Origin: a virus
Lineage: Duplodnaviria > Heunggongvirae > Uroviricota > Caudoviricetes
Virus record (IMG/VR): IMGVR_UViG_2541047898_000007
Direction: 5' to 3' (one strand)
Length of the DNA: 41,901 nucleotides
Under the pieces are notes generated by a model. That model was not told where the DNA came from. It saw only the letters and a list, made by a program, of their open reading frames with translations, and did not search any database. The number at the start of each line of letters is the position of its first letter. Within the stretch, counting starts at the first letter, position 1. The position numbers and the translations under genes are program-made. Shown here one piece after another: positions 14,737 to 17,444 of the stretch.

Positions 14737-14873
14737 CATTTGAATCCTGTTTTTCCGATCACCTCCGCGTTCGCTGGCAGCGGCTTCGCTTATACCACTT
14801 TCCCGGCTCTGTGCTAACGGACTACCGGATACTGAAGAATTACGTGAAAACTTATGCTGGAGAAGCGCTATGA
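14733..14873 (+). CDS. YlcG-like small protein (46 aa), absent from the ORF track
   Basis: Manual translation [46 protein letters not shown]; ATGA overlap with the rusA stop and with the Q start. Confidence 0.45.
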
Positions 14874-15652
14874 ACCTTGAAAACACAGTGAAATACCACT
14901 TCGCTAAATCCACACTGATTAGCGATTCTCCGCGCGCTACCGCCTCCGATTCACTGACCGGTACCGACATAATGGCTGCCATGGGCATGACGCAGGAACG
15001 CGCCGCAATGGGTTACAGCGCCTTCCTCGGCAAGATGGGCATAAGCAATAACGACCGGGATCGGGCGATCGGTCTGCTGGCTGAGTACGCGATGACAAAA
15101 TGCGACAAGGTTGCCGCACTGCGTAAGCTCGGTGCCGCGGTTAAACCTCAGGTGATGCACCAGTTGGCCACCTTCGCTTTTGAGGACTATTCCCGCAGCG
15201 CTGCCAGCGTGAAGCAGTGCGATTGTTGTGACGGTCAGGGCTTCATTGAGGCTGACGTGTTTACCAATAAATTCCGTAAGCCAGAAGGGAAAATGACCGT
15301 GTCCGGGATGGTGAAGGTCAAAGAATCCATCAAAGTGCTATGCAAAAAGTGTAATGGCTCTGGTGTGGTTAGTGCTTCTTGCAGTGATTGCCATGGGCGC
15401 GGCAAGGCAGTGAACCAGGCTCTTACTGAGAAACAGGGCGTTCCTGTTCTGGCTGACTGTAAGCGCTGCGGAGGGCGTGGGTATGAACGACTTCCGTCGA
15501 CTGAAGCCTATGCTGCTGTATGCCAGATTACTGACGCCATTAGCCTGGACACCTGGAAAAAGTCTGTTAAGCCATTCTACGACCTGCTGATCACGAAATT
15601 TGATATCGAAGAGTCCTGGGCCGAAAAACAGCTTAAGCAGATAACGCGGTAA
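14870..15652 (+). CDS. Late-gene antitermination protein Q-like
   Basis: 260 aa; paired CxxC motifs (CKKCNGSG...CSDCHGRG...CKRCGGRG); position after rusA and before the lysis cassette. Confidence 0.55.
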   Translation: MNLENTVKYHFAKSTLISDSPRATASDSLTGTDIMAAMGMTQERAAMGYSAFLGKMGISNNDRDRAIGLLAEYAMTKCDKVAALRKLGAAVKPQVMHQLATFAFEDYSRSAASVKQCDCCDGQGFIEADVFTNKFRKPEGKMTVSGMVKVKESIKVLCKKCNGSGVVSASCSDCHGRGKAVNQALTEKQGVPVLADCKRCGGRGYERLPSTEAYAAVCQITDAISLDTWKKSVKPFYDLLITKFDIEESWAEKQLKQITR

Positions 15653-15855
15653 CGCCTATAGCGATAGCCTATGATTTTGTCTTGGGCTATTTACTTTTCC
15701 CGAATCTGTGTTAATTTTGTCCCAACGATGGGTTAATGCCTTCGTTTCAAGCCCTGCGGATAACACCGTGGGGTTTTTGCGTTTCTGGAGACAGCAATAC
15801 CAAGGTTCGAGACATTCAGGTAAAATTGATGCATTACAGGATGTGAGGTTGGGGA

Positions 15856-16425
15856 ATGAATAATCTACCCGATGATTACTTTTTGGATGCGGACGACGAA
15901 CTCGTTGCTTTTCTGGAGAAGCAGGGCGAGGATTGTATACGCGAAATTCACCAGTCCAACGCACTAAACAAAGAAAATGGCCAGAAGTTATTGAGTATAC
16001 TCATTGCTGGCGTGGGCTCGTCATTTTTGTTATTAACGCAACGTACAGGTTTTGATTACCTCACCGCTGGAATGTCTGTTTTTTTAGTCTACTGGGCAAT
16101 GTGTGCGGCTTATCTTGTTCGCTGCGTCCTCGTTGTAAGGTCACGAGCTCTCGTGTCATCGACACCCTATGCGCTTTACCATGATGGCTATAAAGGGTTT
16201 ACTGAAGATGATTACACTGGTTTTGAGTCGAAAGGATTTTCAGGAAAGCGTTCAACATTGAACGTCTTGCGGCGCTACCGGCTTGCGGATTTAACCAGAA
16301 TGGCTGAAATGAGTAAAAAAGAGAATGCCAGAATAGGCCGAGAACTAGAAAGGGTAAGGATCGCTACAATCCTCACCCCTGTTTGTGCACTTGTAATCTC
16401 AGTACTTACTTACCTTTTTTTCTGA
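15856..16425 (+). CDS. Membrane protein of unknown function (moron between Q and lysis genes)
   Basis: 189 aa; acidic N-terminus, predicted TM helices (LLSILIAGVGSSFLLL, MSVFLVYWAMCAAYLV, ILTPVCALVISVLTYLFF); AT-richer than neighbours; preceded by about 200 bp non-coding. Confidence 0.5.
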   Translation: MNNLPDDYFLDADDELVAFLEKQGEDCIREIHQSNALNKENGQKLLSILIAGVGSSFLLLTQRTGFDYLTAGMSVFLVYWAMCAAYLVRCVLVVRSRALVSSTPYALYHDGYKGFTEDDYTGFESKGFSGKRSTLNVLRRYRLADLTRMAEMSKKENARIGRELERVRIATILTPVCALVISVLTYLFF

Positions 16426-16645
16426 TGTTTTCAGCAGAATCGGCAACAAAGGTATAACCTGTCCTCAGATTTCTTTCGGCTGGCTGTGGAGCCGGTTTAG
16501 GCTGTGGTGCGGGTTGAGGCTTATTTTCTCCAGATGGTTTGTTTGATTCACTCATATAATTCTCCATGTTTGATAGGGTTATTTTTGGCGATTTAACGAT
16601 ATCAAATACAGTGATTTGCTGCTAGAGCATGCACTTATCTATAAC

Positions 16646-16676
16646 TCGCCCCGGCACCCGCTGGGGCTTTTTTATT
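16646..16676 (+). terminator. Rho-independent terminator upstream of the lysis cassette (possibly tR'-like)
   Basis: cgccccggcacccgctggggc hairpin followed by tttttt. Confidence 0.5.
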
Positions 16677-16789
16677 TCCGGCTCACGGTAATCATCCGCT
16701 ACGTGCTTTGTTGATAAATCCAACCCGTGAAGCCTGAGCCTATTTCCCCTCATACCTGAGAGGACTCACAGCAATTAAGAGGGGGCTAA

Positions 16790-17176
16790 ATGTCCGATCC
16801 AATTTCCGGTACTGGGCTGGCTGGTGGTGCCCTGACGGGTGCCAGTGTTTATGGACTGCTGACCGGAACTGATTACGGCGTTGTATTTGGCGCATTTGCA
16901 GGGGCTGTATTCTACATAGCAACAGCAGCGGATCTGAGCGCATCGCGCCGACTGGCATATTTTATCGTGTCGTATATTGCCGGGATCCTTTGCTCTGGGT
17001 TGGTTGGCTCCAAGCTGGCAAGCTTGACCGGATACAGTGATAAACCTCTGGATGCCATTGGTGCCGTAATCGTATCTGCTTTAGCCGTTAAGATCCTGAC
17101 GTTCCTGAATAATCAGGATATCGGGTCGCTGGTGGCGCTCATAACGCGCCGGGGAGGTTCAGGTGGAGCTAAATGA
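16790..17176 (+). CDS. Putative holin
   Basis: 128 aa; Gly/Ala-rich hydrophobic segments and charged C-terminus; first gene of the lysis cassette, RBS agaggggg upstream. Confidence 0.5.
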   Translation: MSDPISGTGLAGGALTGASVYGLLTGTDYGVVFGAFAGAVFYIATAADLSASRRLAYFIVSYIAGILCSGLVGSKLASLTGYSDKPLDAIGAVIVSALAVKILTFLNNQDIGSLVALITRRGGSGGAK

Positions 17177-17444
17177 CCCGACAGCAACTATAAACGCGCT
17201 GTTATGTGCTTGTGTTGTTATTACTCTGATGTTTTATCGTCGTGGTGATTCGCGGCATCGTCCTTGGGTTTCACGTTTAGCCTGGCTGATTACTGTTACA
17301 TACAGTGCTGTTCCGTTGGCCTATCTCTGTGGGATTTATCCCCATTCCTCATGGCCCATTATCGTGGCGAATACTATTTTTCTTTCCGTGCTGGTGGCCG
17401 TCAGAGGCAACGTTGCACGCCTGGTTGATCATCTGAGGCACTAA
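17163..17444 (+). CDS. Second holin-like / antiholin-like membrane protein
   Basis: 93 aa; predicted TM segments; overlaps neighbours at both ends. Confidence 0.4.
   Translation: MELNDPTATINALLCACVVITLMFYRRGDSRHRPWVSRLAWLITVTYSAVPLAYLCGIYPHSSWPIIVANTIFLSVLVAVRGNVARLVDHLRH

Follow-up and report, generated by a model that had tools for sequence, protein, structure and literature searches.

A stretch of DNA of 41,901 nucleotides (IMG/VR virus record IMGVR_UViG_2541047898_000007), referred to here as the window, represents a lambdoid prophage of E. coli that carries two convergent genes between the gene of the antiterminator Q and the lysis genes. The first, open reading frame ORF189 (15856-16425, plus strand), encodes an inner-membrane protein of 189 residues with a predicted cytoplasmic N-terminus. 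The second, ORF49 (16406-16555, minus strand), encodes a small, hydrophilic, proline-rich protein of 49 residues (RefSeq WP_162842358) and shares 20 nucleotides with the 3' end of ORF189. To judge from its conservation, ORF49 is an obligate, co-inherited partner of ORF189 and the inserted unit is a two-gene cassette. A preliminary description of this DNA had recognized the membrane protein as the content of the insert and had noted the antisense, proline-rich reading frame of 49 codons, which is confirmed on the minus strand. Its single-gene view of the insert is given up here because ORF49 is conserved and inherited together with ORF189.

We tentatively propose that ORF189 is a membrane-permeabilizing effector that ORF49 holds in check both as a protein and as an antisense RNA, a proposal to which we assign slightly less than an even chance.

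The two proteins and their co-inheritance

The association of the two genes was followed in 8 genome loci, 80 viral contigs and 2 phage records, which yielded 89 loci with a full-length homologue of ORF189. In 87 of these a convergent, proline-rich reading frame of 47-64 codons overlaps the 3' end of the large gene by 20-35 nucleotides. The same arrangement extends to the remote homologues of ORF189 (24-31% identity), all of which, as far as they were looked up, have a convergent proline-rich reading frame of 42-67 codons at the 3' end. Both reading frames match PHROG families of unknown function, with E values of 6e-84 and 5e-26. Since these matches are strong and the pair recurs, the reading frames of the cassette are more than chance occurrences.

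ORF49 is preceded by a Shine-Dalgarno sequence, GGAG, 7 nucleotides upstream of the ATG. The protein starts with MSESNKP, continues with a spacer rich in proline and glutamine and ends with the C-terminal motif RTGYTFVADSAENIRKKGK. Within the family the start is MSESNKP-like, the Pro/Gln-rich spacer varies in length and the C-terminal motif takes the form R..hhVGDSAE..RKKxK. Pairwise differences between the small reading frames outside the overlap amount to 0.42, 0.34 and 0.61 at codon positions 1, 2 and 3, respectively. The excess at the third position identifies ORF49 as protein-coding, and on this comparative evidence it is translated and under purifying selection. A chance reading frame and a purely non-coding antisense RNA were both considered and rejected, in view of the codon-position pattern, the maintenance of the frame across insertions and deletions and the conserved motifs. 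When modeled alone by AlphaFold2 (AF2), ORF49 is mostly disordered (predicted local distance difference test score, pLDDT, of 64). Searches of Pfam, NCBIfam and PADLOC retrieved no match to it.

The N-terminal 43 residues of ORF189 carry a net charge of -8. Residues 69-95 and 166-189 are strongly hydrophobic and residues 45-61, rich in glycine and serine, form a third hydrophobic helix, in agreement with the acidic N-terminus and the approximately three transmembrane helices of the preliminary description. The AF2 model of ORF189 (pLDDT 83) contains long helices at residues 14-62, 68-92 and 134-188, which run from the cytoplasm into the membrane. With the topology assigned by the positive-inside rule, the predicted layout comprises an acidic cytoplasmic N-terminus, a transmembrane hairpin (residues 45-93), a basic, helical cytoplasmic region (94-167) and a C-terminal transmembrane segment (168-189). 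Residues E21, E25, G52, R140, N157 and R168 are invariant. The closer relatives of ORF189 are proteins of approximately 189 residues from Enterobacterales, all annotated as hypothetical; a profile search widens the family to approximately 100 clusters of proteins of 160-200 residues. Fold and sequence searches of the PDB with ORF189 were uninformative, and the literature search returned no description of the cassette.

In a search run in distant mode, members of the family were found in 242 of 5,426 complete E. coli genomes (approximately 4.5%), six of which contain the exact variant of the window. In one of the E. coli examples the flanking genes are again those of a Q-like protein and a lambda-family holin, and many other Enterobacterales prophages also carry members. 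The ORF189 homologue is disrupted in three of the eight species-representative genomes: in Yersinia pekkanenii (L010) by a deletion, in Symbiopectobacterium purcellii (L011) at codon 112 by an insertion (insertion sequence, IS) with a reading frame of 121 codons, and in Leclercia adecarboxylata (L012) by a frameshift that leaves the small reading frame intact.

Transcription signals and a hairpin opposite the ORF189 coding sequence

A putative promoter of its own precedes ORF189. Its -10-like element, TAAAAT (15821-15826, plus strand), is embedded in the conserved sequence ..CATTCAGGTAAAAT. Among 39 divergent cassettes chosen as representatives at least 22 have it, at a distance of 38-45 nucleotides upstream of the start codon. 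The variants TAAGAT and TAGTAT retain A2 and T6, the two key positions of a -10 element. Upstream of the large gene in a remote locus (L100) the corresponding element reads AGGTATAAT. On the opposite strand, 5' of ORF49, lies the conserved block ATTTGATATCGTTAAATCGCCAAAAATAACC (16578-16608, minus strand) with an extended -10 element, TGATATCGT, at 16604 to 16596. The conservation of this block, ATCTGATATCGTTAAATCGCCAAAAGTAAC, is far above that of coding DNA, and it recurs in another remote locus (L097). The extended -10 element, TGnTAYnnT, is found at -46 to -57 from the ORF49 ATG in 33 of the 39 representatives and would place the start of the ORF49 transcript near 16589. Both promoters remain predictions. 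A further hairpin, at approximately 16610-16645, lies between the promoter block of ORF49 and the plus-strand terminator of the cassette; in many cassettes its arms read GCCAGA..TCTGGC, and their sequence differs among cassettes while complementarity is kept.

The transcript of ORF49 contains a hairpin of 14 base pairs (16350-16380, minus strand), which begins 26 nucleotides past the ORF49 stop codon and is antisense to the ORF189 codons for RVRIATILTP. It is present in all 39 representatives. Its mean free energy is -20.3 kcal/mol on the minus strand compared with -14.7 kcal/mol on the plus strand, and the minus-strand form is the more stable one in 36 of the 39 cassettes. Compensatory changes occur at 6 of the 14 pairs. 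In the alignment 91.5% of the hairpin cells are paired, as opposed to 43-53% in controls with slid partners, and the covariation score was reached by none of 500 shuffles. In 37 of 38 sequences one of the pairs is G.U. Since the G.U pairs would become A.C mismatches on the plus strand, a role of the hairpin as an element of that strand was rejected.

The compensatory changes alter residues of ORF189, from RVRIATILTP to RARMVTILAP, and the structure of an RNA from the antisense strand therefore shapes the ORF189 protein. The hairpin is a clean case of selection on RNA structure that molds the coding sequence of the opposite strand. It probably represents the 3' end of the ORF49 transcript, as a terminator or a stabilizer. 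The positions of the promoter-like elements and terminators imply that the ORF49 mRNA (from approximately 16589 to approximately 16345) would be complementary to the last approximately 250 nucleotides of the ORF189 mRNA.

The slot between Q and the lysis genes

The gene order of this part of the window is ninB, DUF1364, rusA, ylcG, Q (14870-15652), ORF189 on the plus strand, ORF49 on the minus strand, two holin-family genes, a GH19 endolysin gene and Rz/Rz1. In IMG/VR the window corresponds to contig IMGVR_UViG_2565956724_000005, and its positions 15600-16800 match the chromosome of E. coli LR-33 at 100% identity. The flanks of the insert are common to the phages HK225 and mEp237 and to E. coli KL53, up to 15790 and again from approximately 16663, and the cargo between them differs or is absent. 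The alignment reveals an invariant block at approximately 15686-15790, after which homology stops. In HK225 the slot between Q and the holin gene is occupied by a minus-strand gene of 136 codons and in mEp237 by a gene of 213 codons; in KL53 it consists of approximately 240 bp without a gene. By this comparison the mobile unit extends from approximately 15791 to 16667, comprises approximately 877 bp and two genes, and lies directly downstream of the terminator tR'.

The insert thus occurs variably between genes that adjoin each other in related phages. It ends in a terminator stem of its own, and its base composition deviates: the GC content is 0.42-0.47 across 15550-16750 and 0.50-0.58 in the flanks on either side. 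Flanks shared exactly with related phages that hold other or no cargo, together with -10-like elements and a terminator stem that belong to the insert and an AT content above that of its surroundings, support the view that the insert is a moron in a cargo slot. The preliminary description had placed a moron in this slot, AT-richer than its neighbors, preceded by approximately 200 bp of non-coding DNA and followed by a strong terminator. On all these points it holds; the non-coding DNA 5' of ORF189 measures 203 bp (15653-15855).

The terminator in question, the second intrinsic terminator that a terminator scan located in the region (16648-16677, plus strand), consists of a stem at 16648-16667 followed by TTTTTTATTT. 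The stem belongs to the cassette and the T-run to the conserved phage backbone. In the related phages the same T-run is preceded by a different GC-rich stem for each alternative cargo. A bidirectional terminator at 16648 was considered and rejected since the minus strand lacks a T-run. A conserved backbone block of approximately 78 bp (16668-16745, plus strand) separates the terminator from the lysis genes; it is near-identical in HK225, mEp237 and KL53 despite their differing cargo and holins. The block has no match in Rfam, and the Rfam search of the whole region returned nothing. The lysis cassette starts with two tandem holin-family genes on the plus strand, at 16790-17176 (PF16931, E 1e-34; 128 residues) and 17163-17444 (PF05449, E 7e-20; 93 residues), which overlap by 14 nucleotides and lie upstream of the GH19 endolysin gene.

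The preliminary description had left open where the late promoter lies relative to the insert. Homology with lambda places the promoter, the pause element and the terminator upstream of the insert, with exact coordinates for transcript mapping. Q (14870-15652, plus strand) belongs to the lambda Q family (PF03589, E 2e-45) and is 37% identical to lambda Q (E 1e-54). Residues approximately 113-170 contain an insert of approximately 53 residues that is missing from lambda Q, with extra CxxCxGxG zinc-finger repeats similar to those of DnaJ; it matches the DnaJ central domain at E 3e-7, below the Pfam cut-off. The late promoter PR' (15690-15717, plus strand) has the -35 element TTTACT (15690-15695), a spacer of 16 nucleotides and the -10 element TAATTT (15712-15717). 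It aligns column for column with lambda PR' and is invariant in HK225, mEp237 and E. coli KL53. Transcription would start at approximately 15724. The initial transcribed sequence, AACGATGGGTTAAT (15724-15737, plus strand), is identical to that of lambda PR'. In lambda it is established that this sequence carries the sigma70-dependent pause element, part of qut, which is needed for Q loading. The intrinsic terminator tR' (15749-15786, plus strand) was found by the terminator scan, aligns with lambda tR' and is an annotated terminator in HK225. It lies between the late promoter and the insert. The promoter-proximal RNA is predicted to be approximately 55-60 nucleotides long, with approximately 140 nucleotides fewer than in lambda between the pause region and tR'; the lambda 6S RNA is 194 nucleotides long.

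By homology, PR', the pause element and tR', together with a lambda-family Q, qualify as a lambda-type late control unit. As all three elements are upstream of the insert, the cassette would lie inside the Q-dependent late operon, and Q-modified RNA polymerase would have to cross it before reaching the lysis genes. In Shiga-toxin (Stx) phages this position is taken by stx. ORF189 probably has its own promoter in addition to Q-dependent transcription.

Close relatives of the cassette are found behind all three families of Q (PF03589, PF06530 and PF06323) and are combined with different holins. A constant linkage to endolysin and holin genes is not observed: members sit beside cI/Cro, in early regions and within tail genes. 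Several of the remote members adjoin cI/Cro/CII or are located in early regions, away from the lysis genes; the vicinity of cI/Cro/CII is the usual place of exclusion genes expressed in the lysogen. In two remote loci (L097 and L099) the small reading frame follows the repressor operon and is read in the same direction. Of the 87 loci 67 can be oriented, and in every one of them the large gene and the flanking operon run in the same direction. Two Citrobacter koseri prophages (L106 and L107, 5001-5706) have the cassette within the cluster of tail genes, flanked by a DUF6246 gene and the tape-measure gene and co-directional with the structural genes.

The slot itself accommodates other cargo. 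In a Serratia rubidaea NCTC12971 prophage (L005, 4103-5500) a complete Kiwa system (KwaA, E 2e-84; KwaB, E 4e-96) shares the Q-to-holin slot with a copy of the cassette and lies between that copy and a Q21-family antiterminator gene. In phage vB_Apl-pPE4 (L013, 4483-5057; listed host Actinobacillus pleuropneumoniae) a TerB-domain gene and a gene of 50 codons lie between the cassette and the holin gene, and the slot can therefore stack several cargo units. The slot that carries stx in Shiga-toxin phages is thereby documented as a general hot spot, open also to known defence systems such as Kiwa.

The position of the cassette brings in a first alternative. ORF189 might be synthesized mainly from the Q-dependent late transcript and act while the phage itself grows lytically, for example by a partial depolarization that tunes the triggering of holin and the timing of lysis, or by keeping superinfecting phages out at a late stage of infection. 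In that case ORF49 and its antisense RNA would only silence ORF189 in the lysogen. This agrees with the location of ORF189 downstream of PR'-tR' and with its co-direction with late transcription at all orientable loci, the tail cluster included. ORF49 is antisense to late transcription, so that induction would shut it off; in the two loci with a co-directional repressor operon, induction would lower the small reading frame relative to the large gene. The lysis role that the preliminary description had offered as one option finds little encouragement in homology. The searches of Pfam and PHROGs with ORF189 returned no holin, antiholin or other lysis family, the very kind of match that had been named in advance as refuting a moron effector. 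Moreover, the lysis cassette is already complete, with two holin-family genes, the GH19 endolysin and Rz/Rz1, closely related phages manage without the cassette, and remote members of the family occur at a distance from lysis genes, in immunity or early regions. We regard an accessory function in the lytic phase as unlikely.

Function of the cassette and comparison with known systems

The abortive-infection type of effector, another option of the preliminary description, is the one we prefer as a guess, based on a remote link of ORF189 to PycTM and on the Kiwa system next to one of the cassettes. PycTM is reported to act in abortive infection by disrupting the integrity of the membrane (PMC11224242). 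The link runs through P0155, a family member of 188 residues that matches the ORF189 profile over its full length (E 8e-22). In a PADLOC scan of 54 divergent family members P0155 provided the one clear connection: it matches PycTM (E 1.5e-8) and the CBASS effector with two transmembrane segments (2TM; E 4e-5), in each case along the full length, and a match to PF18967 (PycTM) is among its precomputed annotations. Four other family members produced weaker, marginal matches to the same models. The P0155 gene adjoins cI/Cro/CII and is accompanied by the usual convergent small reading frame and by no cyclase gene. When P0155 was used as query for PycTM relatives linked to a cyclase, only cyclase-less members of the family were returned.

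According to the mechanism we favor, both genes would be transcribed from their own promoters in the lysogen. ORF49 would bind the cytoplasmic domain of ORF189 and keep it inactive, and antisense pairing together with convergent transcription would reinforce this restraint. ORF189 would be released when the supply of ORF49 collapses, either because an infecting phage shuts off transcription or because Q-modified late transcription runs head-on against ORF49 after induction. Free ORF189 would then permeabilize the inner membrane, with the result that infection is aborted or the cell is killed. In its most far-reaching form the proposal sees a widespread new prophage family of abortive-infection or toxin-antidote modules, in which a PycTM-like pore former without a cyclase is governed not by a nucleotide signal but by a disordered, proline-rich protein and its antisense mRNA, and in which a selected hairpin constrains the residues that enter the last transmembrane helix. 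Taken together, this combination appears possible yet doubtful. If true, such an architecture, with a cyclase-less PycTM-like effector, a convergent small-protein partner and dual control by protein and antisense RNA, would be unprecedented among defence and toxin-antidote systems, and current tools would miss it, as neither protein is represented in Pfam, NCBIfam or PADLOC.

Several observations weigh against the favored mechanism. ORF189 itself matched no Pfam or PADLOC model (E <= 0.1 to 1), no NCBIfam model and no solved structure. The PycTM connection, with a single strong intermediate and several marginal ones, is a lead and not proof, and the Pfam scan of P0155 at E <= 0.01 did not list PF18967. 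Neither a cyclase nor a CD-NTase gene was adjacent in more than 100 loci inspected as annotated or Pfam-labelled neighborhoods, so that the PycTM-like route of activation is missing. With respect to autonomous promoters, conserved -10-like elements precede both genes, the -35 elements are weak, and a scan with a strict sigma-70 consensus yielded no promoter for this region. In many cassettes only a short U-tract, or none, follows the minus-strand hairpin, which may therefore be a weak terminator, a 3' stabilizer or a non-terminating structure. The toxicity of ORF189 and its binding by ORF49 are conjectures, and the co-direction of the large gene with late transcription fits a role in the lytic phase as well as it fits defence.

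An inner-membrane protein made by the lysogen could also act by blocking the DNA of incoming phages, with ORF49 as its regulator or unrelated to it. P22 SieA, HK97 gp15 and T4 Imm block DNA entry of incoming phages. As a moron that equips the gene of an inner-membrane protein with a -10-like element and a terminator, the cassette has the arrangement of the HK97 gp15 moron, and the slot is rich in defence genes. The predicted topology argues against superinfection exclusion of this kind: both soluble parts of ORF189, with the conserved charged regions, would be cytoplasmic, and exposure to the periplasm would be limited to approximately 6 variable residues (62-67) and the C-terminal end. ORF189 is not similar to the annotated exclusion proteins in PHROGs, and exclusion would leave the strict co-inheritance with a cytoplasmic small protein and the antisense geometry unexplained. 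We consider it improbable.

The logic of the gene pair would also suit a toxin and antidote that kill cells which lose the prophage, without any role in phage defence. The candidate antidote is small, disordered and probably labile, and the disruption of ORF189 in three of the eight species-representative genomes, with the small reading frame intact in L. adecarboxylata, points in the same direction. Prophage genes often decay in any case, post-segregational killing is of little benefit to a prophage that is integrated, and the toxicity this explanation requires is itself conjectural. Addiction overlaps the mechanism favored here, from which it differs only in the selective benefit, and in this pure form it has a low probability.

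PycTM (PF18967) and the CBASS 2TM effectors are among the known systems closest to the cassette. These effectors are all-helical, membrane-embedded proteins of approximately 160-190 residues, as are the members of the ORF189 family; P0155 fits both models from end to end, both groups are encoded on mobile elements in defence contexts, and the action proposed for ORF189, membrane permeabilization leading to abortive infection, is the same as theirs. In contrast, ORF189 itself reaches neither model, no cyclase or CD-NTase is adjacent, and its partner is a convergent, proline-rich protein of 49 residues. The signal that activates or restrains ORF189 must therefore differ from that of PycTM.

The late control unit resembles lambda PR'-qut-tR' in its lambda-family Q, in the conserved -35 and -10 elements and AACGATGGGTTAAT, and in a terminator that can be aligned with tR'. 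It differs in the proximal RNA of approximately 55-60 nucleotides compared with 194 nucleotides, in the DnaJ-like zinc-finger insert of Q and in the sequence of the promoter spacer, where lambda Q binds DNA. With the morons of lambdoid late operons, such as stx and HK97 gp15, the cassette shares the features of an autonomous insert between normally adjacent genes, with its own -10-like element and terminator and a deviant base composition. Like stx it follows PR'-tR' closely and precedes the holin gene, and Q-dependent readthrough will therefore also express it. Unlike these morons it consists of two convergent genes with transcripts predicted to overlap, and the gene products are unrelated to characterized moron products.

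Convergent transcripts that overlap at their 3' ends are known from the type I toxin-antitoxin systems txpA/RatA and bsrG/SR4 of Bacillus prophages and from lambda cII/oop. The cassette resembles type I systems in that a membrane-protein gene is opposed by a short transcript which is predicted to overlap its 3' end and to terminate in a strong hairpin, and in its location on a prophage. Type I systems are defined by a small hydrophobic toxin peptide and a non-coding antisense antitoxin, a definition that the cassette does not fit: its putative toxin has 189 residues instead of fewer than 60, and its antisense transcript encodes a protein under purifying selection. Control is therefore likely to be exerted at the level of the protein, or by protein and RNA together, and not purely by RNA. 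By position the cassette appears to be an ordinary moron; by its convergent two-gene architecture it represents an uncharacterized type, with a possible link to the effectors of cyclic-nucleotide systems, from which it differs by having no signaling enzyme.

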